64,000 bases of DNA from Phoronis australis (taxonomy: Eukaryota; Animalia; Phoronida): the NCBI GenBank assembly GCA_002633005.1, contig NMRA01000079.1, positions 510,102 to 574,101 on the forward strand, given 5' to 3'. The translations under genes were made by a program, and so were the position numbers. Under the pieces are notes generated by a model that saw only the letters and a list, made by a program, of their open reading frames with translations, did not search any database and was not told where the DNA came from. Shown piece after piece: positions 1 through 41,831 of this stretch; positions within the stretch are counted from its first letter, which is position 1, and every line of letters starts with the position of its first letter.

Positions 1-133
1 TAAGCTGGTTTTGTTGTGAGCTCTGTCGCCTCGAGCAGGAACAAAACGTCTTTCACATTAAAGGTAGTCTCCACTGAGCAAGTTCATGCAAGACCTACAA
101 ACTCTTTTAAGAATCGGAAATCTTAAACCAAAC

Positions 134-12400: not shown

Positions 12401-15400
12401 ATAAGCATAGACTATATACAACATGGACCGCCAACTCTATATATTCCCAACGCGCAAAATCAGTCGGTGATATTGCACACAAGCCGCGACCACCGCGACG
12501 GCAACAATCACTAGCGCCGTTATGCATGTTTTAGGTCCTATGAGTCACGTCGTCTGCTCACTAACGGTATGTAAGACCCTAGAAAATTGACCAAACATGG
12601 TTACCTTTGGAACATCATTTATCAGATACGATGCTTTATTCATTGTTCTCCAAAACACCGTTAGGCATTTTTTAAAAATGTTCCACTTTTGCATGACGAC
12701 GTTTTATGAAAACATTCAAAAGTTGCAAATGGCGAATACGAAGTGATAGCACTTATATCAGACGAAAATTAGCCATGATATTGATGTTTTTTGTTTATGA
12801 CTATACCGGTACCTTTCTTTTTGCTATATTTTGCTATATTTTGCTATATTTTGGTAACTTAAGGTTACGACATCCTGGTGGGTATAGTTTGGTACAAAGT
12901 CACCAATGAAATACTACAGTTTTTTTCTTTCAGAAAGTATGTACTTTCACGGAATTAAGTAATTTTGTAATTTTGTAATTTTGTAATTTTGCACATATTT
13001 GGCTAAATACACTGCCTTGTCTGGATAAAATTAACCGGAAGCCGAGCTGTGCATCGGAAGAGAGTGGGGGCTCCTCTAGGAATTACATAAGGACATCTCT
13101 GAGCTACGAATCTGTTGTGTAAGATCTGTGACATGAGAGAGAAGTAACTTGTGTACCTTGTGCAGCCCGATGGAAGCTGGAACCACCGCAATCTCCTCCA
13201 ACATCAGTTGGAACTGTGGCGCGTGCAGGGCGTCGTAAACTATAGGGTACCAGATTTGCAGTCGGATGGGGTACTGAAAAAAAGAACGCCGTGGTAAGTG
13301 GCCAAAACGTTCGAGAAAGAGCGATATACACTACGCTCCTTCTAATTCATTTAAATTCTCACAATTTTTCTTCATTTCCAAATTGAGGAATGAGAGATGA
13401 AACTATGAAAACTGAATGACTACAATCAAAGTGTACTACTACCACTTATTAAAATTAAAACAAACGTTACAAAAGGAATTGGTCTCGTAAAGCAGACGAC
13501 ATTGTGTGAATTAACACGAACAGGGCAATACGACTTTGGGACTATTTTTGCGGTGGAATAAAACTTGCATAGACTGCAAATCAAACACAGGAACTGCCGT
13601 GATCATGCGCATTAGTCTCATTTGAAGATTTAGCTTATTACTAACAGATTGCTGTAGGTTGTCGTGGTTATATAGCTCGAAACTGTGGACGCGACCGCCT
13701 GGCAAGTCGTAGGTGTAATCAACTAAGGACATCAGCCCGCCGACGTCAGTGTTCCACGCGTCTCGTTTTTCCACGAGATTGCCGTAGTAAACTTCATTGC
13801 CTGCAAGAAGAGAGACAACAGTGGCTAAAAAATACAATCTGACTTTTGTGTAAAGTATTGGCACAAACTTCCTTAGACTTTCGTGTCACTTTTTGGGTGA
13901 AATCAACGGTTAGGAACTATAAACCAGCTATACTGTTCTAACAAAAAAAACTAATTTTTGATTCAGTCCCCTACGGTTAGGAAACAGTGTCCGATTCTTC
14001 CTTAATTATATTAAAATTAGTTTCTGGAATTGAGAACGACTCACAATACGACCAGTCAAGTTAACTAGTTTGAGCCAGGCCTCGCCAATGATCAGTGCCC
14101 AGTATGTTTGGTATACGGCGGATTTAAGAAACAAAACAGCATTCGTCCCAAAATTTAATTCTTGTTAAACAATTGAGGATGTACATAGACCTTATAAATA
14201 GGAGTTTGCTTTTTGACAGATTAGAGCGTACATGCTTCAACATCGACTCCAATAGAATGATTCCAGTTGCGATTCTCTGTAAAAGTATATGCCTTCTGCA
14301 CGGTGGGTGCATCTGCCTCGTTGAAAATGTAGGTGTGCATTACGTATCCGGGTGAAACGTGATAGGAGAGTGGGTCGATCTTCTGGGTAGTAGTGAAGCC
14401 CATGAGGCTGCCCTTCACGATGTAGACGCTTGTTGGCACTTCAAACTATAAAGCGACGTACATGTAGGATTACAAGAATCAAGCCGTAATTAGGGTGTGT
14501 TTAGGAGCACTCGATGCCATCTCTGTGCCTTCTTGTCTTGTTGACTACAGCAGGAATTGAAGCTAGATACGATTTTACCAGTTTTTACAAAGTCTTTAAA
14601 TGTTGTCAATAATTACATGCACAAAACGCAATTTGCAAAATAGGCTGTCTTACGACCAAGGCTATTCTGGGGACACTGATTAAGTTTTCATGGACTAGAA
14701 TGCAAGGACACACGGCTTTGGGGATTTTTAATTGGATCAAAAATCACTATTAGCTTCAATACATCACATGAAAAAGTCTTTGTAATGTAAATTTGAACAG
14801 TCTTATTTGACAAACTCGGGTCCGGTAACTTAAAGATCTTTAATGAAACAAGAGTCCAGGTTTACGCCAGTGGAAGGTATTTGTTAGACTCACTCACCGT
14901 TTGGATTTGATTGACAGGTTGGAGAGCGGCTAGTATTTCAAACACCAGCTGTAGGCGTGGTTTATCCAATGTGTGATAGGCAATGGGATACCAGATTTGA
15001 AATTTCAGATCAGTCTAAAATGATATGACAATAAATCATAGGAAAAAAAGTAATCCAAAAACAATAATTAATAACAAGTCAATCAGTGCAAATAGTCGTT
15101 TATATTACAATGAATGAATTCAAACTGTCTTTCCGATAGTATTTCACCTAAAAAAATTTTGTACAACGGAAACTGACCATTCATTCCCACAGTTCAACAT
15201 TCCAAAATCTTCGACCAACTACTTCAGTAACCGCCATTTTGCCAAGATAGTCTATTAAGCATACTCGTGAATTTGCGAGGTCTTGCTTTTCTCGCGAACT
15301 AGGTCCACCGCACGTTCCCCTGAATACAGCTTCTGCCTCATACCTGTGCGTTTAAATCTTGGGCGAAAACGTGAAACCGACGCAGTCTCCCATCTGGTAA

Positions 15401-20978: not shown

Positions 20979-23383
20979 GCATGCCAAGATCCTGAAGAGT
21001 TTTGCCTTGCTGACCCACTAGTCCACACAGACGTCAGGGCAGAGTTCAGTAATTCTAGGACGTCGTTAGGACCTCGCTAAAAATAAGACTTCGCGAGATT
21101 ACGCGAGATATTGGCATGTTTTCCATAAGAGCACGTGATTTTATTGGCCAGATTTTTCACGCCGCGAGACAGCTACTGACTCTATACCCATGTGAGTAAG
21201 ATCTGTACTGGTTTGGACATTAAATTTGCGACAGTCATGCGTAAATTATCCTGTAAAAACCCGCGACGGGAAAACGCGAGTGTTTGCGTTGTCCGCATTC
21301 ATTCGACTGGAGTGTTCTCATTAACGAGTGCTGTTTTCGCTGAGTTTTGAGTTCTGTGTTTTTATCTACGTACTTTAGTTTTGTTGTCTCATTTCATCTA
21401 GTATATCATCTGGGTTAGCCGAGTTGCGTATAGCCTCATTCCTAGCTGACAGGAAAATACCAGGAAGTGGTTTATTGAGCTATCGCTTGTCTGGTTTGTG
21501 GATTTTAGCTTAATAGGCCTACTCAGTTTGTTGCTGCTGCTCCTGTTGTTGTTGTTGTTTTGTTATTATTGTTGTTGTTGCGTAGTACGTGTTGTGGTAG
21601 TGTTTAGGATTTAAAGTACGTGATATGGCCCTTTCTGTTTTGTAGACCCTATGTTGTGACGAAGTACCATGCCCGTCAATCCTCCGTCCATGGTAACCGA
21701 AAACATCGTGTTTANNNNNNNNNNNNNNNNTAAATTTTTTAACTTAAAAGTTCACCTGATTAATAGTGCCTGAAGTTACTTTCCTAATTGTCTGTGGCAG
21801 CCGATCCTAGCTCATGTACAGAGTGTTGGCTGCTGTGACGCTGCTGTTGTGATGAAGTGACATTCAGTTCAGTCAGATGAAAACTAAATGCGGTGTTTTC
21901 AACCTGATTCTGAGTCAAGTCACTGGATTCTTTTTCCACCCTCAGCAGGACTACTGACTCATTGTTGTTGACCCAACGCTGGTATGTGATAAAAAGCGGA
22001 AGTTTATGTCGTTCCAGTTTAGCTGTACCGCTAAGGGCTTAGCCACCATACGTGGCTATATGTGAGCGCGTAGGGACCACGTAGTAGTTAACTTTTCTGT
22101 GTGAACACTTGATAAGTCGTGTAGAGACTGGAAACTCCTCTGAGAATCAGAGTGACGGACTGTCGGTTGTTATCACTAACATTGTTACCACTCACAATTA
22201 CGGACAAAAGCATTGGTTGAGATCGAGTTGTGACTGACCTCAAAGACCGGCTGCTGTATTTGTATATTTTATAAGTAAAACCAGCGGCGAGCAGATAGTG
22301 TTTTATTTCTGCACCGTTGCTTTGAAAATTTTGTCTTTCACGAATGTAAAATACGTATGTTTCGGCTAAGTAGGCTACACAACTGCCACTAGATCACGTT
22401 ATTTCAAAGTCAAAAGGTGAATCACGATAACCGCACTTAATCTGTCGTGACTTGTCAACATCAAATTGTGTGACATGGTTTGAGCGTCCTAGTTACGCCC
22501 GTGGCCTTATAATTTATGCGCGTCAGTAGTTAGGCCACGAACCTACGCGTTTAGCTAGAGGCTCGTTTCCATTGGTAAGTAATATAAGTATAAAGCGAAA
22601 TGTATAATAGGTCTACTTTTTGATTTTATATCATTTTCTGAATAAATAAGAGAAGTCCGTAACGTGTAAATGCGTAATCCGCACTGCGTTTATTTGAAAC
22701 GGATTGTGTAATCGATTGTCTGCGCGTAATGGATACGGAACTCCGACATGGAGTCAAAATGGCAACTACATGTACATGTACCTGTCTTCCGCCCATGGCA
22801 AAGGACAAGGCTGTCCTTCCCTAAGAATAAAATCTTCTCACAACGTCATCTACGTGCACGTGTCCTTTGCCCCCTGGAAATAATTGAGAGTTACAGTAAT
22901 TCACACTATTTTCACTCATGATTTGATCGTGGACACGTTAAGTTAACTTGCTGATTTTTTAAAAGCTGGCTCATGGAAACATGAAAACGCATTGGTTATG
23001 GCAAGGAGTATATCGCTCATCACGCATTGCATTACGCACTGACTGAAAAAAACACGGATTTTTGCACAAGTGTTTGAGATGTAGACGTATGCTCACGTGC
23101 GGGCACAGACAGCTGGCCTCTGTATATAAACGCACAGGTCTCAGGTGGCCCTCTGTGTGTCTATTGTGTCGTTTAGATAACTTCCAATTACTATTTCGTT
23201 ATGAGCCCACACATACACGTGATCCGAAAATGTTCGCGAAAATATTCTAGTTTTGTAATATTTTTAGACTCCTAATACACGTTAGTTTAATTATATATCA
23301 ATTGATTTCCACGAAAGTTAACTCTCACGAGCACGGAAATTAAGTATTTTTTTGGAATTGCAGATAATTAAAGCAAGTCGGGG

Positions 23384-23590
23384 ATGAATGAAGATGACAA
23401 GATTCGACTGCGGGTGAACCGCCGTGATATTGTGGAAAACGTACAAACTGAAGAGATATGTCATCGCTTGATAGCTGAGGGTATACTTAATGAAGATGAC
23501 GATGAGAGGATTAGAGCGGAGAAAACATCGAGAGACAAAGCAGCTGCGTTGTTGAATATGTTGCCGAAGAAGGGACCAAATGCTTATAAG
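23384..23590 (+). CDS. Paralog 1 exon 1, CARD N-terminal part
   Basis: 69 codons ending TAT AAG|gttttg; resembles caspase-9/RAIDD-type CARDs. Confidence 0.88.
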
Positions 23591-26500
23591 GTTTTGAACT
23601 TGTTTACGCCGTTTTATTCAGTGAATATTGATTTAATTATATGATGGCTTTTGAATTATAAAATCTCCTGGTTTGGAACGTTTTTAAATTTGAAATGTGA
23701 GAGGTTGTCTGAGAAATACTCTCCAAATATGGGATTTGGGTCGCGACGGTTGATTTTGAATATACCACAATCGTAGTGTTCTTCTCCAACAGGAGCGGTC
23801 TCCAGGAGGAACATAAATATTGTATTGATGATCCTACATTGGCTTTTTTGACAAAATGGCTCTTAAGTGTAGTGCAGTTTGGATGAAAAATAGTACTTTA
23901 TTTGGTCTGTCTGTGTTAAAGCCTCCGATCCGTAACCAAAACACAGACATCAAATGTACTTGTATAACTAAAGTAAGAAAGGAGATTCGATACCTAAAAA
24001 TGAACACGAAAAGGGACTACTTTCTTCAGTGACGTGGCATAACCAAGCAAGATAAATCACAATTAGATAAGTGAAAAAGCGCTTCAGTCTACAACTAGGA
24101 ATAATAATGCGAAATTGAAATTTTTGTAGAGTTATTTAATTTTCAAATTGGTTTTAACATTTACAGGCTAGGACCTGGCGTCTACTTATTTTTGTCATTT
24201 TCAATCGTATTTTTGAGCGAACACAGGATGTGTGTCTATTATTTTATCCTCGAGTACGCAATGGCTTACGGGGCTAACTGTCTAATCCTAATTTGCACTG
24301 GATGACCCAGCGTTAACGTTAAAAGTTCGAGTTTGAACTCGAAATCTCGATTTTTTCTCGAAGGGGTTGCTCCAATCTGGGGGGTCATCAAGTTCGAACT
24401 AGGACTAGAAAATCGTATGCTTAAACCATACTGTGCTCGAGCACATGTTAATAGAAACCTATCTTGAGTAGTTGCAAAAAGTAGAACGATTTGCCAAAAA
24501 TATTTTCGACTTACATTTCGAGCACAAAGGTTAGACCTCAATCCCTGGTTGTTTATATACCCGACCCTATTTCTCCTTGGGTGCAAGTCAAAATCCCATT
24601 GCTCTTATATGACAACACACAGAGTAATCGATGTTTTGATAGGGGCGTGTATACTTGAAGATCTGAGATGCCCAACCGGTCACTTGGTTTCCCCCACTGG
24701 CATTATCTCCCCTGTCATTTTCGCTCAACATTCACCCACGGGAGCCATCACTGCAGATGTAGAGACATATTTATGTAAAGATTTCAAAAATTGTTCCCAA
24801 ACGTAGACTGTTCTGAAACTTTATCTGAAGTTTAAATTATTAAAAATGACCCCGCTAGTGTAGTCCTAGCCTTCTCTCAAAATATTGGACCACAATGAAT
24901 TTTTTTCACTCAAAAGTAACCTTTCTAGCGGCATTTCCTCTTTGTATTCATTGCCGAAATAAGTACATCTGGGAAACATAAGGCGCGCCCCGTAAACCAA
25001 GTGTCTGGCCTAAATACCAAGATCACACAAGACCACGCAAGTGAAAGGCGAGTGATTCACGCTGAGTATCGCGAGAATGCTCGAGACCCTGTATGCTTTA
25101 AAGACCCTCTAACGTGGTTGTTTTCGGTAACATCAAAGTGTGTACTCTGGTAAACAAGTTACAGTAACTCAATACTGTTGTAGCGTAACCCAGACAAACG
25201 GCGGTGATTGGTCGGTGAGGTTGGAAAGTTGCATCATGGGAGAATTCTTTATGACCTGATGGCCTTCGATTCTACGAGAACAGATTTTCGCCACTAGAGC
25301 GTGACTAATGACCTTTATACGAGGGTCTAATTCGACTCCGCAGTTAACTAAACGGACCAGTAGATAATTTTTTAGTTGCGTGCATCTCGACCCCAATAAT
25401 TATTTTGGACTGTGTTTAATTCTCGTTTTTCGTCATGGTTTCAGACGTTCCGTGATGGCTTACAACAGGATCCAGTATATGAATGGATCATTAAGAAATT
25501 AGACGAAACAGATGTCTCCGGTGAGAAGTGGTGTTATGCATAAGTGGCAAAAAAAAACGAAAAAAGACAGCAAATTACTGCAGTAATATCGCTTATATTC
25601 TTCAAGTGGGACTGTTCAATTTGATAGAAAGATTGAAAAGTTTGCCATTTGGTCTTTGATTTGAGACAAAAACAAGTCAGGTTTTCTTATGAAAACATCA
25701 CGAATTTGCGTTACGTAATGATAAGAATTCTCATGTATTCGAATATGTGGACATTATACATTACTTTTGAATGATCACCCGTCTATGATACACTTGCAAG
25801 TTGTTTGGGTCAGGTTCTGTCACATTTACCTAATTAGAGTCAAACTCAGCAACGGATGTCAAAATCACGATTCTAGTGTTGGTACAGCATAGGCAGATTT
25901 TTTTTGGGGGGGGGGGGGTGNCATCGGAATGCTGACTGTCCCTCCTTACGGTACCCTAGATCCGCCAGCGTTGTACAGTAATGCATGGCCAGTTTTACAT
26001 TTAGTAATGTATGGCTGTCGTGAATATTACATGTATCAACATTAGTGTGACATTTGGACCTTGTAAGTCGACCATTCAAACTTTCGTGTGATTTCTTTTT
26101 AGGGATTGAACACCAAGGGAAACCTCAGCAAAGTTCTTCAGGCGAGACAAGTGATAACCTGTCTCGCATCACGAAGTCACTCACAGATCAAAACTGCGAC
26201 ATTATGAAGAACAACAAAACGATGCTGGAATGTTTGAGTTCGCCCACAGCCCCTGTTCACATCGTTAAAAACGCTGAGCCTAAAAGCACGCCAAAATATA
26301 GAATTAAAATAACTCTTGTCGGACGTTCATTTTCTGGCAAAACACGTCTTTTAGATTACCTGAAAAACAATCGCTTCAACGAATCATTGGATGACACCAC
26401 CACCTGCGGAGTCTCTTTTCAGTTGAAGGTGATGCCGACTAATTTGGGGGATGCAAGACTTGAATTGTGGGATACAGCTGGTCAAGAAACATTTATGGAG

Positions 26501-26881
26501 GTGTCGAAATCCATAGCCAGGCACTCTCGCTGTGTTGTCATTGTCATAGACGTTACTAAAAAAGACAGTTTGGATGTTGCATTAACCTGGTATAATATCT
26601 GCAAAGAATTGGGCATACACTATTGCGTTTTCATGTGTAATAAAATTGACTTGACAGAACGTGTGGAGCTAGACAGGGAAACCATAGAGAATGCCATTGG
26701 TGATAACCCGTGCTTCTGGGTCTCTGCAAAGACCGGTGAGAACGTGAATTACGCATTTTCTATGACTGGACTTGGTGCAGTCGTCCGTTCTAGCGCGGAG
26801 GTTGAATCTACGCTGGTTCAAAGTCGGATGAACTTAAACTTGCCTGAAAGAGAAAGAAGACGGTTCTGCATCATTTTATGA
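23384..26881 (+). CDS. CARD-Rab-like small GTPase fusion with CaaX box, paralog 1 (~353 aa)
   Basis: Exons 23384-23590, 25445-25520, 26103-26881 with GT-AG sites and compatible phases (0,1). CARD signature (LxxNRxDIVEN..., RIRAEKT..DKA..LL.MLPKKGPNAY..F...L). G1 GRSFSGKT, G3 WDTAGQE, G4 NKID, G5 SAK; C-terminus RRRFCIIL. Confidence 0.88.
25445..25520 (+). CDS. Paralog 1 exon 2, CARD C-terminal helices
   Basis: tcag|ACG TTC ... TCC G|gtgaga; TFRDGLQQDPVYEWIIKKLDETDVS; homologous exon at 35649-35724. Confidence 0.85.
26103..26881 (+). CDS. Paralog 1 exon 3, linker + Rab-like GTPase + CaaX
   Basis: tttag|GG ATT GAA; complete G1-G5 motifs; CIIL-stop. Confidence 0.92.
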
Positions 26882-28441
26882 GGTCTGACGCATCCGTGGC
26901 GTATGAGGTGATACATTAACACTTCATCTTGGTGCTTAGTTGAGAGCAAAACTATATTGAATCTTGTGTTCTGCTACACTCAATGGTTACCTGAAGTTTA
27001 TTTTGGTACTCATTTCTCGTTACAATTTTATCGCGAGCCCCTTCGAACACTGCACCTAGAGTACCTATACAGAAAGCATCAATCTGGCTGTGATAATATC
27101 TTGGCTTGTGTAGACAACAACAGAACGTTATAGCTTAAGTTTAAGACGCTATACCAGAGATCAGTTGATTTCCCTTTCCGTCTATTCCCAAGGTAGCAGC
27201 GTACCACTGCACCATTGGCTGTTTCCTTTTAGATTAAAAGCGACACGTTGGTCATGAACTTGTTTGTAACCTGTCTAGCTGATAATCAGGTTGGTACTGC
27301 ATTTGCAGGCCAAGTAGAAATCGCAAATACCCATACCTGGGCTGCGAGCGAGTCAGAGACCCGCAAAGAACCTGCCTTGTGTTTGGTAGCTTGGTCTTGT
27401 ATATGGAAATATGTAAACACAGTCTCAAATAGGACTGGTGCCCGTTCTCTGGTCGCAAACATTCGTAAAAACTCAAGATCACGAAAATCCTGCACTCTGA
27501 ACTATTCACGAGAGAAGTAGATAAATTTTCAAATTTGTCTAGAAAAGCACAAAAAGGGCTCATGTATTGCATCAAGATGCTTAGCCAAAACAACAGAAAT
27601 CTGAAGAGGGAAAAAGTTGTCGGACTAATTATTCTATTTTCATTGTCCACCCTACTTGTTGATCAACGTGGATGTAAACGTATTTGCAATGTATTAAATA
27701 AGAATTGTCTGAAGCCTGCTGCTCAGAAGATGTTAAAGATGTAGGATACGTTTTGATCCTTGTATGTGGAGATAGTTTTATATAATACCTCGTTTAAGTG
27801 TAAACGATACAAAAATATGCCATTTTCCATACAAAGTGTTGCATAGGACCCTTCCTACAAACGCTTAGCTATTTGAAATAAATTGTGTTAATTCTGATTC
27901 TTGAACTTTCTGTAAGAACGAATGTGAGACAATTGAACACTGTATTTTGTAGACTGTTGCGTCACGCGCTCTTTTTTGGTGCGACATTGAGAGACTGTTA
28001 TCAGCAGAGGTTGACTCCAAACTTCATTTGGGAAAAGGGCAATACTTTTTGGAACTCTGTTCAAAAAAATAAAACACAGTACTCAACTGGTTTCTATTGC
28101 ACACGAAATACTACATATACATTTCAAAAACTAAAATGAATGCCTTAACCTTAAATGTTTTTATTAATTATTTGAAAACAAGTTTTACCGATGAGAAGTA
28201 TATTATAAAGCAAAAAATCCAGATGAACTATAGGAATTCTATAAACCGTGGGAGTCTATCTTTGCTGGCTACGTTATCCATTCACTGATACGTGCATATA
28301 TTGTACAGTAGTAAAGTTAAGTTGAGTGGGGCCTGCACTGGGTGACTAACGTGTTTATGTGTACCATGTAAAGTTAAGTACCTCAACACTATTATTTACA
28401 TCTTTGTAATGTTATATTTGACTGGAATTGCTGCAACATTA

Positions 28442-30111
28442 TTATGCGCCCACATATTATATGTGGGTGCATATTGCTGTCATCTCTGTTTGGGCATCCG
28501 GCGTCCGCGACTGTATCTCCTAAACCCCTTGCAGGATCTTATTGAAATTTGGCAGGTGTGGGGTTGACGACAGAGGGCGACGAGTTTCGGACCGACCCGA
28601 ATACCCCTGTGCCCCCTAGTGACAATTTTAGTTTTTTCGTTTTCCTCTGTATCTTGAAAGGTCCTCAACCGATTTTCATGAAATTTGGCACATAGGCATC
28701 TATTAATGAGGTGACGCTATCCTTTCGTTTTCGGATGGATTTGAGGTATTTTGCACCATCTAGTGGCCATTTTTGTTGTTTACGAGTCTGTTGTTTTGGC
28801 GTCCATCCCTCCATCAATCAAACCGCTCAAAGAATGATTACGAAAATTGTCATGTATGTTCTTACTATGAAGTGGACGGCTGACGATGGTTTTCCGACGA
28901 CTTCAACTACTTTGGCGCCTCCTAGTGGCAATTTTGTTTTTTTGCTCCTATGGCGGTATCTCCTAAACAGGATCTTTACTAAATTTATTAAGTGTATTTA
29001 TATGATGTTAGTAACGCAGGACGACGACTTTTGTACAGATCTGACTATTGGTGTGCCACCTAGTGGCGATTTTATTTTTTTACGTTTACCTCTGTATCTT
29101 CAAGAGTCCTCAACGTATTTTCATAGAATTTGGCATACAGGCATCTGCTAATGAGATGACGCTATCTCTCCATTTTCAGACAGATTTGACCTAGTTTGCG
29201 CCACCTAGTGGCCATTTTTACTGTTTTCGAGTCTGTTTTTCGGCGTCCATTCGTCTATCAACCAAACCGCTTTCATGATAATTGTGAAAATTGGCATGTA
29301 TGTTTTAACTATGAAGTGGACGGCTGACGATCATATTCCGGCGACTTCGCGGACTACTGTGGCGCCGCCTTCTGGTATTTTTTTGCGCTCATGGTTGTAT
29401 TTTCTTAACAGTTTGCAGGATCTTTACTTAATTTAGCAGGGGTATTTATATGATGTTCACAACGGACAACGACGACTTTCAGAAGGATCTGACCACTGGT
29501 GTGCCCCCAAGTGGCAATTTTAGGTTTTTACGTTTACATTTGTATCTTCAAAGGTCCTCAACAGATTTTCATAAAATTTTGAATATGAGGCATCTATTGA
29601 AGAGATTACGCTTTGCTCCTGTTTTGGGATGGAATCGAGATATTTTGCGCCACATAGTGGCCATTTTTGGTCTTTTCAAACCCTGGTTTTGGCGTCCACC
29701 TCTCTGTCAACCAATTTTTTTTCTGGTTTTGAAAATTAAAATGTTCTCAGTGTGAAGAGGTGAAGAGTTTGATGATGGCGACTGACCACTGTGACGCCTC
29801 CTAGTAGTAGTTTTGTGTTGTTTCGCGCCCATAGCTGTATTAAGATAACAACAGACCACGACGACTTTCAGGCGGATCCAACGGATTCTGTGCCCATTAG
29901 TGGCAAATTCATTTTATTCTGTTTTCCATTGTCTCTCTGAAGTTCCTTGACAGATTTTTATGAATTATGGCATGTTCCCATTTTTTGGATGGATTGTACG
30001 TTTTTACGCCATCTAGTGGCCATTTTTATGATACAAATAAGTAACCCTCGAAAAGCACACCATCTGCAATGCATTCGTGGGCGTATTTCAACGCTTCGCG
30101 TTGCTCTTGTT
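28442..30111 (+). mobile_element. Helentron-associated (HINE/DINE-1-like) non-autonomous element with internal ~440-bp tandem units
   Basis: 5' ttatgcgcccaca...tgtgggtgcata fold-back; catccg/cgtccg microsatellite; units marked by gtgcc..ctagtggcaattt at ~28609, 29052, 29501, 29890; 3' gtgggcgtat + stem-loop caacgc-ttc-gcgttg + ctcttgtt. Confidence 0.7.
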
Positions 30112-31484
30112 TGAATAATAAATAGTAAATACTTAAAAAAAGAAATCTGAAGAGCCTTATACCGTTATCTGTAAATTACGTGAAGACAATATTCCCGATA
30201 GTTTACTGTTTCGAAAACTGAAACCATTAGGAACTTAAGAAACCGCTTCAAGCTTATTGGGGTTGAACATTCGAATGACGCATGCAATCCCTACCAATTA
30301 TCTACCACGGCGACGCTGAATGAATTCATTAACGCATCGATTCAAAACTGTTGTCAAGAAATAAAATCCCATCGCAGCAGTTTCTGTCCTTGATATTTCA
30401 ATTTATTTCAGCCTGTAATTTATTGCTTATGCGACAATTGGTACCACAGGAGCACAGATCAAATTTTACAGGCGGACAGCGTCACCTGTTGATGTAGAGA
30501 GGCATTCCTCAATTACAACCACCGAACGGCTCAGTTTCCCAATGAGTTTGGGATTTGAATATAGCAATTGCCAACTGTAATTAGGAATAAAACGATTTTT
30601 TCAGGAACATAGCAACAACAAAAATACCTGTTGCCTAGCCTATTTTCAGTGAATCTACGCAATATATGGATGAGAACTCAGGCTCGGGTGACACATCCGG
30701 CATTCTTCCTCTTCGAATATTGTTTTAGTAAATCATTCCCTGCGATGGCGTCCCCGGTCACACAAACATTTTCTCGGCAAGTCGGTCGTGAGAATTAGTG
30801 AGTAGTGTGGAATGCAGTCGCTTCGAGGCGCTGCTATAGTGACAGTGACCTACTTCTGGAAAGGTGACCGTCTAGGCAGGGCGTCTAGCTTTTCGGTTTT
30901 GTGTAAATGTGGTAAAAAGGTAAAAAACACTGTTAAATCATGGTACTTAGGCCATCATTGTTTGCATTGTTCCCATGTGTATCAGTTTTGAGTCTTTTCT
31001 AGAATTTCGTGCTTTTGATTCAAGCAGTTAATCGTATTTTTCGATTCAAGTCGCATTTCCGCAAAACACGTCATGCCGACGCACACTGCGCAAAATCGAA
31101 TTGCCTTGATGCGACCCTTATCGGACTCAGTAGCGCAGGTCGACGAATTTCCCAATGACTCATAATCATATGATAAATATATGTTTTTGCAGTGAGTGGT
31201 CAGTGGTGATCGAGGAACAGCTAAGCTCTAGTGCTTGCGTGTACTGCAGTGGCTTGACTTCACTTTGGGCCAGTAAAACTGTCAAGGCTAGTCAAAAGAG
31301 TGAAAAGGTGAAAGCAACCGCCTGTAATTCGTTAAACATTTCTTATTCTTAACGACTTGGCGTCATTACCTACACATAATGTAGGCCCTACCTAAGTATA
31401 GCCAGTAGAATCGCTACCGAGTTTGCGTTTGGAAATTGCCCTCATCATAGCTGTTGGCAGTCTGTTACGCTGGTGGGACACGGG

Positions 31485-33209
31485 TAGGGTGAGCAAACCA
31501 ATATGGCGGAAATTCAGCAAGAGCGAAATTTTGCCATTTTTCATGATTTTCACAAGCTCGTATTTATTAACATACTAAGTGGTGGAAAATGAAAAGTATG
31601 CTAGTCAAATATATAATTTTTCTTCTTTCTATTGATATCCATTAGAAAAAATTTGGGCATTATTGAGTATTTTTAAAAATTGAAATAAAGCGAGCACTTT
31701 ACAAATTTTTCACTCACCGGTAAATTCTTGTGACTTTCAGTAGGGGTCAAACATTCAGCTGTTATATGGCTGTTACAGAACCGATTTTAATGATATGTAT
31801 ATCAAACTGTTTGCTACAGAATTCTGCTTCCAACCATGAGTGTACTCTTTTTGTTTTTTTGACAAAAATATGAGATAATGTACTTTTTTAATTTACTGAC
31901 TCGCCACTCTCTCACCTGGAAAAATCCTGAAAGTGTACACTCAATGTCATAATCACCAATCATGTCCTAATCCATTCCTGATCAAATGTTTTCACTTTGT
32001 CTCACCATTTCCATTTAGGAACACTTCTAAAAAGGTAACTTCAGTCATTTTTCAAGAACAATGTTAACCTTTCCAGGGTTCAAACTAAACTCGAACCTGA
32101 TTGGTCAAATGTGTTCAACAGAACCAGTCAAAACTTCTCTAAATTACAAAAAGTGGCCCAAACCTGGTGAAATATTTTCATTAAAATAATAAAGAATACT
32201 TTTAAAATTTAATTTACTTCAATTTTGGGGATAGAGTCATTTTTTTCTATTGTCTTCAAAAATATTTTTGTTACACTTTTACTACCTCGTGGTGACGCTG
32301 TGATCAGTTTCATTTTTAGAAAATTAAACATTTCACCAAAATAACAGTCAACGCTGCAGTGCATCAAAACATTTTAGAATACAAATATGCTCTTTTTGGA
32401 TAGTTACCAACACAACACCTCTCAGTTTCTGTATTATTTGATAGGAATGAAATTGATTTAAAATTCATTGAAATTTTAGGGTCCAATTTAATTTTGTTTA
32501 ACTAAAATTGCATACCATTTTCTGTCATTTGGTGTGCAACTTAAGATTGTGAAAACATTGATCTTACTTGGGAAAAAAATTAATTTACATAACCTCACAA
32601 GTTTTTAAATAAATAATGAAATACTCTGAAAAAGACTAGTTTTCTGGTTTTTGCTCATTTTGAATTCATTTGTAATGCAAATTTCATTTTTTAGAATTAT
32701 TTCAAAATCTTTTGGAGCAAAAGAAACATGTTCACTAAACCATAGTAATTCTTGAAGTGTTTTGTCATTTTCAAGGTAATAAGCTGCTCTCTTTTTAAAA
32801 CATCATTTGTTCAACGTAGCTTCAGGGGCAAAAATGTCCTGTCACATGTCGATGGTGAATTTTTCAATTTTTGTTGTTCTTGTTCGTGCAAATTATAATA
32901 ATTTGTGGTTTGGTGTCTATGTCATGTTGTTAACCTACTTGCAAAGGACTCTCCACCGTGTTATAGGAACACTGTGAGGTATGGATTCCCAAATTTAGTT
33001 GTCTAAACTTGCCATTTTCTGTGGCCTGAAATTTCTGGGTGGTGTTTGCTGAAAAAAGGGCCATTTTTTAGGCTGTAAAATTCAAATAACTCGAGATCCG
33101 CCGAACCAATTTGAAAAATTCAAAAAGTTGTATAAACGGCATGTCTAAAGCTATCATTTAACTTTTCAAGTGTTTCTGATGAAATTTGTATTTGGGTCTG
33201 CTCACCCTA
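31485..33209. mobile_element. AT-rich non-autonomous TIR element (hAT-like TAGGG ends)
   Basis: tagggtgagcaaacc ... ggtctgctcacccta inverted termini; no ORF; TSD not resolved. Confidence 0.6.
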
Positions 33210-34060
33210 ACACTGACCTAGGCAACACGTAGCCCCTCGGTTGGCCGGTTAGGGTCTACAATACTTCCCATCGCTTTCTGTAGGAATTTCATCCTGTGTA
33301 TTTTAAACGGGCGGTAGGCGAAATCCACTCACCAATTGGGAGTTTTCATCTCGTCAAAAATACATTCTACACTTAAAACTATGACTTAAAAAGCGCTTAC
33401 TTTCTTCAGTGGTCTTTTCTACTTCTACATATATCTACGACAATTAAGGTAACGTTGGCGAAGCATTTCAACTCCTCTTTTTGGTCACCACGCGCCTAAT
33501 AACCACAAAATATTTCAACTGAGTCATGTGAGTTAGGCAAAGGCTAGCGCGAGACTGAGCAAAGTGCGTGACACTTGCAAAATAGCATGGGAAGGTATCA
33601 GGTGAAATTTGTAAGATTTGTGACCCTTGGACTTTTTATTCGTCAACATGCGTGATTTCACGTAAGTTCCTCAAAATGGCACCCGGAAAGAGAAACTCGA
33701 GGAAAACGCGACAAATTTTCTTGGATATGTTCAAGTCATGCTGACTAAATTTTATCCAAAGTCATGGTATGTGTTAATTATAACTCCATGTTCCTATATG
33801 TATGGTTCATTTGGTTTTATTTGTTGTATTTTGAAATGCGTAACTCTTTATGGGGATCTACTATTGTCCCAGTATGCCTGCGGCATTCAGGGCGATTTAA
33901 TTGCCTAGTGGGACCCTAGTTCTAGGCTTAGGAAGTACACCACTGTGGTGGTGCTCAAGCAGCCAGCCGACTAGTGGCTACTTGTTGCCTGCCAGCATCA
34001 CTAATAATGGCTGAGTGACCCATTTGATCTTTAACTTACAACCAACAGGTAAAACAAGGG

Positions 34061-34267
34061 ATGAATGAAGGTGACAAGATTCGACTGCGGGTGAACCGCC
34101 GTGATATTGTGGAAAACGTACAAACTGAAGAGATATGTCATCGCTTGATAGCTGAGGGTATACTTAATGAAGATGACGATGAGAGGATTAGAGCGGAGAA
34201 AACATCGAGAGACAAAGCAGCTACGCTGTTGAATATGTTGCCGAAGAAGGGACCAAATGCTTATAAG
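34061..34267 (+). CDS. Paralog 2 exon 1, CARD N-terminal part
   Basis: 3 nt differences from 23384-23590; AAG|gttttt donor. Confidence 0.88.
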
Positions 34268-37200
34268 GTTTTTTTATTTCCCGTTTACAGTCAGTGACTT
34301 TTGATTTAATCATTTGAAGAAAAATGAGTTGGATTCGAACTTTTATGAATTTGAATTTCTAACAGTAATCATGGGTCTGAGAAAGGCAACAGATCTGAGA
34401 TAACGTTGAGACACGAGAGATTCAAAATATTACTCCAGCAACATGTCGAACCATGTAGAACTTTCTGGCAGCAAATGTATGAAGAGTTGTTTGGCCAAAC
34501 TGTGAATCCTAGTGTTACAAATTTGTCCAGAATGTGACACTATTTCACAGCACAACCTTATTTACGCTGCAGACTATGCCTTGGGGCAAAAATGTCACAC
34601 AGCACATTTTTAGCATGTTTTTATCTGTTACGCTGTTTTAGTAATTTGTTAAGATATGATTAAATAGCAATTACTTTGAACACACTCAACATCTCAGACA
34701 ACAGAAATATTTCTTACTTCGAGTGACTAATTGTTGTTCGTCACTTTCAGACTCTTAGTGAAAGTCATCATCATTAATCAGGGCTTGGAATTTTCCGCGG
34801 AAACGCGGATTTCCGCTTTTTTGAAATGTGCTTTCCGCTTTTTTTATAATATTTCCGCGTAAAAAAAATCGGATTTGATATGAAATTTCCGCGGCAAATT
34901 CCTTTCTTACCGCGGCGTTGCAGACGACGTTCACCTCGGAAAGCGGAAGTCTTTATGTTTCGGAGGAACGTAAATTGTCAACATTGCCGGGGCATCTGGG
35001 TAAAGCGTGGTGTGATTTTCAATGGCGGCTCGTGTTATTGTTAAGCACGGCGACAAATACTACCGCTCTGCAGCCAAATTTGTGTGGGTTGGGAGTGGAC
35101 GGGCGAGCGAAAAGGACGCAGACGCATGCTATGGTGGTAACGTTTTGTTTTTTTTTTCTAGTCCTCCCGATTTTTGTCGCGGAAAGGTTCACATTGACCA
35201 TTTCAAAGGCTGGTTATCGGGCATGATTTGGGCCGTAAAAGTTTCCGCGTTTTTTGTCATTGGTCATTCCAAGCCCTGATTAATTGCGCCATTTTCAGTC
35301 AAGGCCATTTGCTGGTCTCAATTGTTCCATTGTTGGAAATGGTGGCTTTAGCTTTAATATTATTGGGCAACTTCTTAACTTAACAGTATAACTTGACCAA
35401 CCGTGCAACATCTGTCTCACGCCCTTTTGTAATGTTCGGATGTTCCCTTCAGTTGAATTTAAGAGTTCTGTCGTATGGCAACACCAAGTACTCGGCCCTG
35501 CTTCTAGACATGGGTGTATTATTTTGTTTGTTTGAGATTCATTGTTAGTAACATATACACATGGCTATTGGCCCAATCTCTTTCATGAAACAGACCCTAG
35601 GTCAGTATTTCAACTTCTGTTTGAGTTTCATTTTCTCGCTGCTTTCAGGCATTCTATGATAGTTTATGCCAGGATCCTGTGTATGAATGGATCATTAAGA
35701 AATTGGATGAGACAGATGTATCAGGTGAGCAATATAAAAAGCAGCACTCGACGCTTGCATTTAATGCCAAGTTGCATTTGGCAACTTGACAGAAATACCA
35801 GGTCGCCAAAACTGATAATCCCTGGTCGCCAAATGAAATCTGAGCTTGTCGAATCCAGCCTAGAAATTGTCGACAATAAAAATGTTGTACCCTTCTCCAT
35901 TAACCAATTTGTACACTTACTTCTCCAAATTTTCCGCCTAAATGTACAGTTCATTTTCCAACTCATTTTCTCTTCCCAATGAATGGATATAGAATGTAGA
36001 TGATCACCCACAATGGTGGCACGGGTTTCACCGATCTTGAATTATGGTTTTTGCTGAACAATTCAGACTTCTGTCTGTTCACTTCCTGTGGATATTTAAA
36101 CGCATATTTGATGTGTGCTAGCTGCTGGAGTGGCAAATGCACTGGTTTTATGAAATAAACGGAACAATTGTGTACCAAAGGTAATAAATCTAGACAAAGT
36201 ATTAGTAATTTAGAGTTTGGAAGTCAACTCAAACTTTGAAACAAATTTGTGGGGAATTATTGTCTGACTTGAGATTTTTCTCAGGTTGCCAAACATAATC
36301 TGACGTCACATTGGGGATCTGCAGACTACCATATAGAGAGAGAGTGGTGTAATAATGTACAGTTAATGCTAAAATTTTATTTAAGAGATTTGTTCCGTGG
36401 TAGGCGCCACAGCCAAATACTTTTAAGTCTCTTTGAAAATTACTGTCAGACAATTTCTCCAAGTAGGAAAAGTGAATTTTTCACCATTTGAACTGAAACG
36501 AGCAAAAATGTCCTAAGAATGCATTTCTATGTAGTTCTGATTGATCAAAGTCTTCATTCATTCAGAATTGTGGAGATAATCTCTTAGGCTTTGAAAAGAA
36601 TTATCTCTTGTCTTTGAAACTGGTAAACCAAATAACTTTTGCTGTAAACATTTTTAAATATTATTCTGCATTTTCGAAATGATAGATAATCTTCCTTCCG
36701 TTTTATGGACCCTTATATACATGATAGGTGGGTTCATATTGACGCCATTTATTTCTGGGCGTCCAGTGGCCACTGTGGTATCGCCTAGACTATCCTTGAA
36801 GGTTTTTGATGCCATTTGGGAGATGCAATTGTTACGAAACTGATTACAGATGGCCAATTGGACTACCATTGTGCCTCCTAGTTTTATTTTTTGTCTTGGA
36901 TTTCCATGAATTTTGTCAAATAGGTGTCTGTTAATGAGGTAACATTGCCTGGCAATTTTTTTTTGTATGCATAGCCGGAATCTCGTGCAGAATGATTATG
37001 AGATTTGGCAAGCGTTTACATTATTAAACAAAATATTGGAACTCAAAATGTACCTGAGACAGCTGTCTCTTCAGTGTGGTTACCGTATGTTAGATTACCC
37101 TTTAATGATGTGCTCTGTTACCATGGTAGGATCCCTTATCAGGTTGTCGGATTTGGAACAGTTTCTGACTGCAGGAATTACTTTCCACAAAGTAATACAT

Positions 37201-40200
37201 GCATTATGAAACTGATCACATCCAGATATTTTAAATTCATTATTCGTGGGTCAATTTTTGTGATTCAACAGTGAAATTTGAAGGTTTTCCTTTCTTAAGA
37301 TAGAGGTGCACTAATTTTTAAATACCGAAAATCAAAAAACAACTTGAAGCAATATTTCAGTACAGTCAGGCAGCTGTGTGGTTTGTAACCGGAGTCAATA
37401 GACCCAACACACCCAGCATGCTACCCTCTCACTAGCACTGGGGATAACTGAGGAAAGTGTGTGAGCTTAAAGGAAACCCCGCTGCGTTTCCTGTTCCACT
37501 CCTAATATATCTATGAATGTGGCATAAGATAACCACAACTTTCAGGTTCATTTTACTACTGCTGTGCCCCCTAGTGGCAACTCCATTTTTTAATGTTTAC
37601 CTGTGTATCTTCAAAGTTTCTTGGCAGAACTTCATGAAATTTGGCCAGTACGTTTGTATTAAAGAAGACACCACCTTTCTGTTTTGAACATATTAGAAAT
37701 TTATTGTCCTTCCTGGCGGTCATTTCTGTTATTTATAAGTTACTTTCTTTGGCATTAGCCTCTCTGTCCACCAAACAGCTCAAGGGATCGTCAAGACAAT
37801 TGGCAAATGTTTTCCTACTGATAATAGCTCGATTAACAGTGCTTTTTGCACAAGTCCATGTACTTGGGCTCCCCCTACTCGCGTTTTATTGCATTTGCAG
37901 CTGTATCATCTAAAGCCCTTAAAGGATCTTTGTGAAATATTACAAGTTAATTCATTTGGATGTGGCAGCAGATGGCAGTTTGTATTGGACTGATCTGACT
38001 GTCACTGTAGTGGCAACTCCATTTTTTAATGTTTACCTGTGTATCTTCAAAGTTTCTTGGCAGAACTTCATGAAATTTGGCCAGTACGTTTGTATTAAAG
38101 AAGACACCACCTTTCTGTTTCGAACATATTAGAAATTTATTGTCTTTCCTGGTGGCCATTTCTGTTATTTACAAGTTAACTTACTTTCTTTGGCATTAGC
38201 CACCAAACAGCTCGACTACCACTGTAGTGGCAATGTATTCTTTGCTTTTTACATCTGTATCTTAGGAAGCTGCTGGAGGGGTTTTCATGAAATTTGGCAA
38301 ACAGGTTTTTATTAGGGAGACAATCAATGAGATAGTAATAGCTAGAGTTGAAGTCACGTGGTTTTCATTGAGCAGAGTGGTCCGCGATCTTGCTGATAAC
38401 CGTGTTAGTCAAGATGCGTGTGTACTGTGTAGTATCTAGGAACCAATAAAAACTCGTAGCTTTAATGTTAGGATCGTCAAGTGCAATCTACGATTTTTAG
38501 AAAATCATCCAAGAAAATCATTGCATGCTTGAGCACAGAATTAATTAAATGGTCTTAACACTTATCTTTGGTCATAGCAGAAAACATCAAAAATGAAGTT
38601 TGATTTCCAGTATAACATGGAATCAATGATATAATTTTTTGGTCTTCCTAGGTTTAAAAATTGAAACTGAAATAAAATGATTTTGTGGGCGAGAATCTGA
38701 TTGCAGAAACAATATTGTTCAACTTCATTTGTTCCCTAGATAAGTCGATGTTTCATGGTCTTTGGTTGACTTTCCTTCTTAGTCCGATATGTCTTTAAGG
38801 ATTTAGTGACCTTATTCTCTCCAAGATATCTGTTGTTTTCTAGCAATGAAGAAACACAAAAAGTGACTACAAGATTAATAGTTTTACATTTTCACAGAGT
38901 GGACACTAATTCGAAGATTCATTAGTATAGCCAGGTTATTAGGAATAGGGCAGGATTGAAGGACAGGATGCTCCAAGAGTGCTACACCCCACAATGTTAT
39001 ATTGGGACAGTAGATGGGTTGTTTCTGTAGATTTCAAGAGACGAGACATTTGTAATGTAGCCTGGCAAGTTATTAAAATCTGCAACTGTCTTACTTGAGG
39101 AAAACCATCATTTTTATATTCTGTCTTGTTTATGGTCTTCTGATACTTACAGTGTATGCCTGGGTATGTAGGACAGGGCAGTTATAGTTTATGACCATTG
39201 AGTTTTGTCATAATTATTTTGTGGCGGGGTGTTGTCAGTATAAATGTACTAGTAACTGTGCACCAGTAAATGCCAGATACAACTGAATTGAAGGATTAAA
39301 TTAGAGTTGGTTGAAATCTGANTGCAGACTACCATATAGAGTGCTCGAAAGAGAGAGTGGTGTAATAATGTACAGTTAATGCTAAAATTTTATTTAAGAA
39401 ATTTGTTCCGTGGTAGGCGTCACAGCCAAATACTTTTAAGTCTCTTTGAAAATTACTGTCAGACAATTTCTCCAAGTAGGAAAAGTGAATTTTTCACCAT
39501 TTGAACTGAAACGAGCAAAAATGTCCTTAAGAATGCATTTCTATGTAGTTCTGATTGATAAAAGTCTTCATTCATTCATAATTGTGGAGGTAATCTCTTA
39601 GGCTTTGAAAAGAATTATCTCTTGTCTTTGAAACTTGTAAACCAAATAACTTTTGCTGTAAACATTTTTAAATATTATTGTTCTGCATTTTGGAAAACCA
39701 TTAACTATGATAGATAATCTTCCTTCCGTTTTATGGACCCTTATATACATGATAAGCGGGTTCATATTGACGCCATTTATTTCTGGGCGTCCAGTGGCCA
39801 CTGTGGTATCGCCTAGACTATCCTTGAAGGTTCTTGATGCCATTTGGGAGATGCAGTTGTTACGATACTGGTTACAGATGACCAATTGGACTACCATTGT
39901 GCCTCCTAGTGTTATTTTTTGTCTTGGATTTCCATGAGCTTTATCAAATAGGGGTCTGTTAATGAGGTAACATTGCCTGGCAATTTTGTTTTTTTGTATG
40001 CGTAGCCGGAATCTCGTGCAGAATGATTATGAGATTTGGCAAGTGTTTACATTAAACAAAATATTGGAACTCAAAATATACCTGAGACAGCTGTCTCTTC
40101 AGTCTGGTTATGTAAGATTACCCTTTAATGATGTGCTCTGTTACCATGACATGTTGTACAGTTCCACTGATCAGTTGCATACACTGACATGACTTCACAT

Positions 40201-41831
40201 GCACGAATACTGCTGTTTTGTATGCTCATTGATGTCCATGGGTTTCTATTAACTTTTATGCTCCCACATATTTATATGTGGCCGCATTATGCTCTCATCT
40301 CCGTCCGTCCAGCGTCCGTCTGTCCGGCATCCGCTGCTCTATCTCCAAAACCCTTTGACATAGGTTCATGAAATTTGGCACATTTGTTCCTTTCATGGAT
40401 GGGACAGCACGAGCGAACTTTCCGATGGATCCGACTACCAATTTGCCCCCTAGTGGCAATTTTAGTTTTTTACGCTTACCTCTACAACTTTCAAGGTCCT
40501 CAACATATTTTCATAAAACTTGCCGATAGGCATCTATTAGTGAGCTGACACTGTCATCCGGTTTTTGGATGGATTTGATGTAGTTTGCGCCACCTAGTGG
40601 CCATTTTTACTGTTTTTAATCTGTTTTTTGGCGTCCACCCCTCTATCAACCAAACGGCTCTTAGGGTGATTGTGAAAATTGGCCTGTATGTTCTTACTAC
40701 AAAGCTGACGATTTTACGATGACTTCGACTACTGTGGCACCTCCTAGTGGCAGTTTTGTCTTTTTTGTGCCCATGGCTGTATCTCCTAAACCGTTTGCAG
40801 GATCTTTGCTAAATAAAGCAAGTGTATTTACATTTTGTTCACAGCGGATGACAACAACTTTCTGACGGATCTGACCACCAGTGTGCCCCCTAGTGGCAAT
40901 TTCAGTTTTTTATGTTTACCTCTGTAACTTCAAAGGTCCTCAACAGATTTTCAGAAACTTTGGAATATAGGTATCTATTTGTGAGATGATGCTATCCTTG
41001 CATTTTCGGATGGAATTTGGGTACGTTGCACCACTCAGTGGCCATTTTTCCTGTTTTCCTGTTACGTAATCGTATTATTTTTCTTCAGGGATTGAAGATG
41101 TTGCCAAGTCCAAAGAGATGACTGTTACCGATGTGAGTTCGCTTGTGGATAAAGACTGTGAGCCTATGGAAAACAACAAAAAAATGCTGGAATTTCTGAG
41201 TTCATCAATGGCTCCGGTTCACATCGTAAAAGACACTAAGCCTAAAATCAGTCCAAAATATATTATCAAAATGACTCTCGTTGGTCACACCTTTTCTGGG
41301 AAAACGAGTCTCCTTGATTACTGGCAAAACAATCGGTTCAATGCTTCACAGCACGCTACCATTGGAGCCTCTTTTCAGGTTAAGGTTATGTCGACGAACA
41401 TAGGCGGGGCAAAATTGGAGGTGTGGGATACAGCCGGGCATGAAGCGTATATGAAACTTTCCCAACTTTATCTCCGGGGTTCTCGCTGTGTTGTGATTCT
41501 TATCGATGTAACTAATGCAAAGAGTTTGGAGAGTGCTTTACATTGGTACGGTTTATGTAAGGAATTTGGCAGAGACTATTGTGTATTCATGTGTAACAAA
41601 ACTGACTTGAAAGAACGTGTTGAACTCGATAGAGAAACTGTAGAGGAAGCAATTGGTGATAATCCCTGCTTCTGGGTGTCTGCAAAGACTGGTGAGAACG
41701 TGAATAATGCCTTTTCTATGGCTGCCCTGGGAGCAGTTGTCCGTGCTAGTGCCGAGACTGAAGCAGTTCGTCACATTAACATATTGAGGTTACCTGAAGG
41801 AGAACGCAGGTGGCACTGCATACTTTTGTGA
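34061..41831 (+). CDS. CARD-Rab-like small GTPase fusion with CaaX box, paralog 2 (~341 aa)
   Basis: Exons 34061-34267, 35649-35724, 41089-41831, with the same exon 1 and 2 sizes and the same phases as paralog 1. G1 GHTFSGKT, G3 WDTAGHE, G4 NKTD, G5 SAK; C-terminus RRWHCILL. Confidence 0.88.
34779..35278. mobile_element. 500-bp hAT-like MITE with 6-bp TSD ATTAAT
   Basis: Perfect 13-bp TIR cagggcttggaat/attccaagccctg; ATTAAT at 34773-34778 and 35279-35284; repeated ttccgcg motifs; in intron 1 of paralog 2. Confidence 0.8.
35649..35724 (+). CDS. Paralog 2 exon 2, CARD C-terminal helices
   Basis: tcag|GCA TTC ... TCA G|gtgagc; AFYDSLCQDPVYEWIIKKLDETDVS; 76 nt. Confidence 0.85.
36320..40148. 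repeat. ~0.8-kb near-identical duplication (36320-37125 / 39323-40148), second copy starting after a single N; probable haplotype artefact
   Basis: Near-identical sequence (ORFs 36654..36869 and 39598..39897); N at 39322. Confidence 0.75.
37555..38320 (+). repeat. Degenerate internal tandem units of the HINE-like family
   Basis: gtgccccctagtggcaa / catgaaatttggc motifs; 37570-37790 repeats at 38008-38215. Confidence 0.6.
40255..41060 (+). mobile_element. 3'-truncated copy of the HINE-like element abutting the exon 3 acceptor
   Basis: ttatgctcccacatatttatatgtggccgcat, (cgtc)n microsatellite, and the same ~440-bp units as 28442-30111. Confidence 0.65.
41089..41831 (+). CDS. Paralog 2 exon 3, linker + Rab-like GTPase + CaaX
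   Basis: ttcag|GG ATT GAA in frame with ORF 41118..41831; G1-G5 motifs; CILL-stop. Confidence 0.92.

Follow-up and report, generated by a model that had tools for sequence, protein, structure and literature searches.

How can two neighboring genes that differ throughout most of their coding sequence carry a first coding exon that is nearly the same in both? The question is raised by gene A and gene B, which lie head to tail on the plus strand of the 64,000-nucleotide (nt) stretch of DNA analyzed here (the window) and encode proteins of 353 and 341 amino acids, respectively. Each protein consists of a CARD, a linker, an atypical Rab-like GTPase, and a C-terminal cysteine motif. The reading frames are open in both genes, all four introns are of the GT-AG type, and no third copy of the pair was detected by tblastn within the window. 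The best explanation of the near-identity is non-allelic gene conversion between the two CARD exons, to which we assign a probability of roughly 85%. This process had been proposed in a first-pass annotation of the same DNA, and the proposal held up: silent sites are homogenized within a sharply bounded tract, the tract occupies a homologous position in the two genes, and both copies are real.

Silent divergence and the limits of the tract

The first coding exon of gene A spans positions 23364 to 23590, including 20 nt of 5' untranslated region (UTR), and was delimited with the help of RNA depth. That of gene B spans 34049 to 34267, including 12 nt of UTR, and is marked by loose ends of DNA and RNA sequences. 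Their coding parts (23384 to 23590 and 34061 to 34267), both encoding CARD residues 1 to 69, are 10.7 kb apart and differ at 3 of 207 nt, namely, at positions 11, 163, and 166 (D4G, A55T, and a synonymous change at L56), exactly as annotated. The label "exon 1" that they had been given is correct for the coding sequence but not for the transcript, as spliced upstream 5' UTR exons are found in RNA of both genes.

The remainder of each gene is different. Coding exon 2 (25445 to 25520 in gene A and 35649 to 35724 in gene B) encodes the end of the CARD and is not homogenized. Sixteen of its 76 nt differ, about 9 of them silently, and so do 4 of 25 residues, in agreement with the earlier estimate of about 16 differences, many of them silent. 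Coding exon 3 (26103 to 26881 and 41089 to 41831) encodes the linker, the GTPase, and the C-terminal motif; over 162 codons, the GTPase core exhibits 70.4% amino acid identity, close to the annotated value of approximately 70%. The gene A transcript model, including the junction in front of exon 2, and the exon 2-exon 3 junctions of both genes were inferred from splice sites and reading frame.

The annotation had suggested a comparison of silent divergence exon by exon. In the CARD exon, a single change was found at 43.7 silent sites, a proportion (pS) of 0.023, compared to values of 0.67 and 0.61 for exons 2 and 3, respectively, the corrected silent divergence (dS) of exon 3 being about 1.2. 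Silent divergence of the CARD exon is lower than that of exon 2 and the GTPase combined (Fisher's p = 3e-13) and than that of exon 2 alone (p = 1.7e-6). Among codons that specify the same residue in both genes, 1 of 65 differs in the CARD exon versus 7 of 21 in exon 2. The longest identical run in the CARD exon is 151 nt, a length reached in none of 20,000 codon permutations (maximum, 63). No second conversion tract was found in exons 2 and 3, where the best identical run is 23 nt (P = 0.17). Nonsynonymous divergence (dN) is far below dS in both of these exons (0.12 versus 1.6 in exon 2 and 0.20 versus 1.2 in exon 3), a sign that purifying selection has acted on both genes and that both have been functional.

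Extreme purifying selection on the nucleotides themselves, for a regulatory element, an RNA structure, or codon constraint, could in principle have frozen the CARD exon since the duplication, and the almost exact coincidence of the tract with a coding exon would suit such a cause. Five of eight sequencing runs were used in this analysis: two DNA runs of one sample (X1 and X3) and three RNA runs from two other studies (X5, X6, and X7). Silent variants at 23467 (6 of 20 X7 reads), 23500 (an X5 contig), and 23549 segregate in the exon, together with three that change residues, so its silent sites are free to change. In addition, the GC content at third codon positions is ordinary (0.43 versus 0.42 to 0.46). 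We regard this explanation as extremely improbable, and the earlier statement that purifying selection is unable to account for the missing silent change is in line with the variants at 23467 and 23500.

The near-identity starts 3 nt 5' of the ATG and stops 5 nt into the intron, delimiting a block of approximately 215 nt at 23381 to 23595 in gene A and at 34058 to 34272 in gene B. Copy A was delimited by sequence comparison and by a contig path common to both genes (23395 to 23595), and copy B by sequence comparison and by an X1 contig that begins at 34243. Upstream, the adjoining 200 nt of the two genes cannot be aligned (496 of 500 shuffles score equally high). Downstream, the intron is homologous and in register between the two genes: positions 23609 to 23763 correspond to 34281 to 34430 with an intermediate divergence (72% identity over 138 columns, a score reached in 0 of 500 shuffles). 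The description of the flanks as only loosely alignable was thus accurate. Among the seven A/B flanks tested, a significant alignment was obtained for two, this intron and the 3' UTR.

Simulation of the first ~155 nt of the downstream intron gave a best fit of about 0.6 to 0.75 changes per site, which is below the 1.0 to 1.2 of exon 3. The observed score was reached in 0 of 400 simulations at a divergence of 1.2 and in 2 of 400 at a divergence of 1.0 without indels. It is possible, judging from this comparison, that the intron flank represents an older and longer conversion tract. Conversion templated by mRNA found no support, since exon 2 is not converted.

A further way to obtain two similar exons is recent grafting: one paralog would have acquired its CARD exon by a new insertion or duplication, or the exon would have been replaced through a double unequal crossover. 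The closest relatives of the GTPase carry other N termini, pointing to a swapping of N-terminal modules within the family, and the grafting of domains has been reported for RLRs of lophotrochozoans (PMC8998645). However, exon 2, which encodes the remainder of the CARD, is an old component of both genes, and the intron that follows the CARD exon is homologous and in register. We consider grafting very improbable, with the proviso that a double crossover is indistinguishable from conversion with these data.

Both copies in DNA and RNA reads

A nearly perfect match between two exons could also arise if the consensus of one copy had replaced the other copy during assembly or polishing. The assembly does contain haplotype artifacts, as indicated by single-N joins beside tandem duplicates of 92.8% identity elsewhere in the window. 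These duplicates (10508 to 12296 and 12298 to 14138, and 36320 to 37125 and 39323 to 40148) are separated by an N at 12297 and at 39322 and are likely joined haplotypes. The sample of X1 and X3 may furthermore derive from the individual that is the source of the window (0 differences in 5 of the 8 listed X3 pieces).

Independently built contigs nevertheless join both flanks to a single exon path. In X3, an A-flank contig (23307 to 23424, 0 differences, depth of 23.5) and a B-flank contig (depth of 32.8, with a loose end matching 34028 onward) lead into the same 201-nt contig, which covers 23395 to 23595 at a depth of 58.2. This contig exits into the intron of gene A, via a contig from 23566, and into the intron of gene B, via a loose end matching 34273 onward. 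Two flanks leading in, one path, and two introns leading out are the shape expected of two loci with one exon and leave no room for a diverged copy. The X1 contig, which begins 30 nt short of the tract end, crosses the intron of gene B into its exon 2.

The RNA reads agree with this. An upstream 5' UTR exon of gene A ends at 22574 (matched over 22544 to 22574 by five X7 reads with a loose end and followed by a GTAAGT donor), and an alternative one ends at 21493 (matched over 21465 to 21493 by an X5 contig with a loose end before 23363 and followed by GT). RNA bearing either end enters the same CARD exon as RNA bearing the 5' UTR exon of gene B, which ends at 31307 and is matched over 31287 to 31307 by loose ends in X5 (one contig), X6 (eight reads), and X7 (eight reads). 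Since 5' UTR exons of both types occur in RNA, both promoters are active; individual bulk RNA runs contain the 5' ends of both genes or both alleles at position 11. None of 36 X6 reads and none of 39 X7 reads, aligned at a threshold of 82%, was less than 90% identical to the CARD exon. The alignment of reads over 22900 to 36200 was dominated by high-copy repeats, and the splice joints of gene A were unreadable in it. With both copies seen in their own flanks in DNA contigs and RNA reads, the latter from runs of two other studies, an artifact of assembly has a next to negligible probability, and the misassembly that the annotation had named as its refuting case did not materialize.

The variants within the exon bear on how often conversion took place. 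D4G follows the locus in all four runs aligned at position 11. B-type letters at positions 163 and 166 are rarer than B-type 5' ends or position-11 letters (1 of 8 versus 10 of 20 in X7 and 5 of 12 versus 8 of 12 in X6), which is expected if the variants at 163 and 166 are common to both loci. Three X7 reads splice into exon 2 of gene B with a median overhang of 75 nt; at least two of them probably span position 163, yet just one X7 read is B-type there. K52N (23539) occurs on the A-type background at 163 and 166 in 6 of 14 X6 reads and 3 of 10 X7 reads, and in X6, this haplotype seems too common to be easily assigned to gene A. The difference between the two CARD exons (3 of 207 nt, or 1.4%) is no larger than the nearby difference between the window and the contigs (54 of 4,440 positions in X3 and 44 of 4,605 in X1, or 1.0 to 1.2%; Fisher's p = 0.74). 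Recurrence of the conversion is likely. As a practical consequence, the CARD exon is of no use for dating the paralogs or for telling them apart, and reads that fall within it have no assignable locus. Residue 74, in exon 2 of gene B, is Ser in the window but Gly, as in gene A, according to the reads of X6 and X7.

Several points weigh against conversion as set out here. The association of D4G with the paralog shows that homogenization does not extend to the left edge of the exon. The allele-sharing counts are unphased, small, and nonindependent, with Fisher's p = 0.058 when pooled and 0.077 and 0.21 per sample. Short variant bubbles may be dropped from X3 contigs, so that a common contig does not prove identity over 201 nt. 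At a threshold of 3 reads, the junction from the CARD exon to exon 2 of gene A was seen in none of the three RNA runs, for which low counts or contig simplification may be responsible. The older tier in the intron is one of seven flanks tested, and intronic constraint could yield the same result, while the four-fold sites, 35 of 64 of which differ between the genes, leave a wide interval on gene age. An orthologous CARD-Rab pair from another species was not found in the protein searches described below. Finally, the step from conversion to a common CARD partner is weakened a little because the part of the CARD encoded by exon 2 differs at 4 residues.

The missing junction of gene A is also what would be seen if chimeras existed, either transcripts in which its CARD exon is spliced to exon 2 of gene B or a hybrid allele, with the promoter of gene A and the body of gene B, produced by unequal crossover within the tract. 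Splicing of the CARD exon to exon 2 of gene B was detected in all RNA runs (one contig in X5, seven reads in X6, and three in X7). From 23395, the X5 contig continues into this exon without a branch, although it is fed by a 5' contig of the A type that has a similar depth (45.8 versus 50.3), and the X7 reads across the junction probably bear A-type letters at 163 and 166. A fusion allele of such a kind is known for SIGLEC14/5 (PMC4042635). On the other hand, exon 3 of gene A is covered at an RNA depth of 4.8 to 11.8 in X6 and X7, the counts are tiny given that 3 reads were needed, and contig simplification can delete a branch. A-type letters at 163 and 166 are moreover commoner than A-type 5' ends, a better fit to an allele of gene B. 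We judge chimeras to be improbable; if they exist, they would be a consequence of the near-identity and not its cause.

With respect to the introns, no RNA was found in X5, X6, or X7 over 23609 to 23716, which a CARD-only read-through form would need. Further into the same intron of gene A, at 23744 to 23950, low sense-strand RNA occurs in all three runs and is probably pre-mRNA. The intron after the CARD exon of gene B harbors a 506-nt high-copy insert (34773 to 35278) that is skipped by the X1 and X3 DNA contigs, an insertion polymorphism.

The repeat at 28442 to 30028 and 40256 to 41058 was considered as part of the tract and rejected, being a high-copy element with a depth of up to 1e5. 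Together with a copy at 37528 to 38314, it has a period of about 440 nt, its copies are 64 to 77% identical, and it is transcribed mainly from the plus strand in the RNA runs. The window comes from an intron-rich animal genome; at its left end (123 to 8100, minus strand) lies a collagen gene of several exons, with an open frame of 432 codons that encodes Gly-X-Y repeats. At 60129 to 63624 on the minus strand, a non-LTR retroelement is fragmented over several frames, with RVT_1 and weak zf-RVT matches.

The CARD-Rab proteins and their relatives

The first coding exon matches the Pfam CARD family (PF00619) with 52.1 bits in gene A and 51.3 bits in gene B (cutoff, 23.9), and its first match in the Atlas clusters is to CARD (0.92). 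The alignment covers profile positions 4 to 65 of 85, which implies that the end of the domain lies in the unconverted exon 2. The description of the CARD as homogenized is consequently right for the part in the first exon and wrong for the domain as a whole, in which 6 of approximately 94 residues differ in the assembly, 4 of them in exon 2. The converted exon presumably corresponds to CARD helices 1 to 4, which we take to provide much of the homotypic surface, with exon 2 supplying the rest; the fold predicted from the single 69-residue sequence was too poor (pTM of 0.40) to confirm this. Of the solved structures, those of Apaf-1 (E value of 2e-5) and RAIDD (1.3e-4) match the exon best, although weakly, and an acidic run at residues 38 to 42 aligns with an acidic run of Apaf-1.

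Exon 3 matches the Pfam Ras family (PF00071) with 84.6 bits in gene A and 102.5 bits in gene B. Both GTPases retain the G1 to G5 motifs and end in CIIL (gene A) or CILL (gene B). C-terminal ends of this type are generally geranylgeranylated. The model predicted for exon 3 of gene B (pTM of 0.73) matches Rab structures with template modeling (TM) scores of 0.85 to 0.90 over the target, a root mean square deviation of about 2 Å, and 24 to 31% identity. By sequence, the matches to Rab7, Rab5, Rab35, and Rab8 are nearly equal, and no Rab subfamily stands out. Gene B has a His at what we take to be the position of the catalytic Gln of the Ras family, and switch I of gene A is extended by an insertion of two residues, suggesting that the parts that likely face effectors have diverged.

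Among the best 150 of 32,073 HMMER matches, the closest relatives are P0004, P0015, and P0016 (33 to 35% identity), the latter two named Lingula anatina by their sources. In a 34-row tree of GTPases, which was built without a named reference set of Rab subfamilies, these three form one clade with genes A and B (support of 99/97), and A and B are sisters (100/99). The N termini of the three are hydrophobic, with two likely membrane segments as judged by eye; a Pfam scan found no CARD in them, and the terminal cysteine motif is also absent. The names that members of this atypical Rab-like clade bear in databases, such as SEC4 and Rab-7a, look like automatic labels.

The combination of a CARD with a Rab-like GTPase was not recovered from other proteins by any of the searches performed. 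A word-index search with the GTPase exon of gene A retained none of 625 candidates at the strict threshold of E 1e-20, and a similar search for the CARD exon within longer proteins yielded 0 of 60, which is weak evidence. A profile search gave 33 matches among 7,998 proteins scored, none with a precomputed CARD. When 12 proteins were chosen for their N-terminal extensions among the best 150 HMMER matches, none had a Pfam CARD. In the Atlas clusters, exon 3 of gene B falls with generic Ras-family proteins and the CARD exon with generic CARDs, and no cluster combined both families. Such a fusion was not found either in the titles and opening lines of abstracts listed by literature searches, although supplements of genome papers or subscription journals could list it; in the text on lophotrochozoan RLRs (PMC8998645), "Rab" and "GTPase" occur 0 times. 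On the basis of these searches, the CARD-Rab architecture may be undescribed.

Possible function and comparison with known systems

In the mechanism we propose, an old tandem duplication would have given rise to two expressed CARD-Rab-like genes, and non-allelic gene conversion, probably recurrent, would have overwritten one copy of the CARD exon with the other. The 215-nt block would be the sole long near-identical stretch left, at which conversion restarts and at whose diverged flanks it halts. Exon 2 (76 nt) and exon 3 would have escaped, the rest of each gene being too diverged to convert. The products would be lipid-anchored small GTPases with different switch regions and interchangeable CARD surfaces, comprising approximately the first four helices, and would share a single CARD-bearing partner downstream, for example an adaptor or the prodomain of a caspase.

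Conversion of the CARD exon is likely to be tolerated, at the least. It may also have been favored by selection for a common CARD partner, a tentative step that we rate somewhat below an even chance. Its competitor, with odds just short of even, is conversion that is real but selectively neutral, the CARD exon simply being the last long near-identical block and its state carrying no message about a common partner. The two share their mechanism and compete only over function; under neutrality, the informative signal would be the escape of the GTPase exon. Neutrality is favored by the fact that two of the three paralog differences and one of the three extra variants in the CARD exon change residues, by the divergence of exon 2, which also belongs to the CARD, and by two reports, one of relaxed constraint on the converted SIGLEC11/16 exons (PMC5701461) and one in which the islands that stay divergent despite conversion are interpreted as the part under selection (PMC3728101). 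Conversely, the tract ends 3 to 5 nt from the coding limits, and exon 3 carries no tract in spite of its greater length (740 to 780 nt). These limits fit a filter that accepts conversion of the CARD and rejects that of the GTPase, but limits of homology alone could give the same picture.

A more elaborate picture of the selected case is doubtful at present. Genes A and B would constitute a pair of lipid-anchored CARD-Rab switches in which each diverged GTPase responds to its own membrane or input while both signal through a single caspase or immune platform that depends on CARDs, with recurrent conversion of the CARD exon retained by selection; hybrid alleles or transcripts of A and B might arise from the same homology. 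Membrane traffic would be tied directly to death-fold signaling by a protein that joins a CARD to a prenylatable Rab-like GTPase. Because the ~215-nt tract splits the CARD, the pair could also serve to find out which surfaces of this domain have to remain matched.

The nearest precedent comes from primates. CASP1, CARD16, and CARD17 have been homogenized by conversion at least three times, and the authors of that study predict that this preserves homotypic CARD binding (PMC11383037). Both cases involve neighboring CARD-coding paralogs, and the common-binding hypothesis is the same as that of the first-pass annotation. The primate set comprises a caspase and CARD-only proteins, with converted blocks of at least 1 kb and events across species. 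In the present pair, by contrast, each member has a GTPase, a tract of ~215 nt spans just a portion of the CARD, and a single species is known. No CARD-only or caspase member of the CASP1 decoy type was encountered, the GTPase exons of genes A and B being intact. If the present reading is true, the locus offers a compact case of domain-limited CARD exon conversion of a nonvertebrate type, with brachiopod proteins as its closest named relatives. Mosaic conversion in invertebrate paralogs is itself on record for copepod GOT1 (PMC3728101).

Other parts of the two proteins can be compared with better-known families. Their GTPases share the G1 to G5 motifs, the G-domain fold, and the C-terminal cysteine motif with the Rab family but differ from the structures of Rab7/Ypt7, Rab5, Rab8, and Rab10 in the Protein Data Bank by their low identity (24 to 31%), the N-terminal CARD, and a linker of roughly 60 residues. 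The relatives P0004, P0015, and P0016 have the linker motif and the C-terminal GTPase motifs in common with genes A and B, whereas their N termini are hydrophobic and they lack both the Pfam CARD and the terminal cysteine motif. The weak similarity of the CARDs to those of Apaf-1 and RAIDD does not name a partner.

The restriction of conversion to one interaction domain is best matched by the Siglecs. For SIGLEC11/16, conversion is reported to be partial and confined to exons that encode one such domain (PMC5701461), and domain-limited conversion, with a fusion allele from the same homology, is reported for SIGLEC5/14 (PMC4042635). In these pairs, as here, the exons of a single interaction domain are converted while the other end of the protein has diverged. 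The design would be inverted, however: Siglecs homogenize the input (ligand) domain and differ in their outputs, whereas genes A and B homogenize the CARD, the presumed output, and differ in the GTPase, the presumed input. Conversion of a CARD exon is thus a process known from primates, whereas the type of gene that carries it here may be undescribed and may matter more than the conversion.

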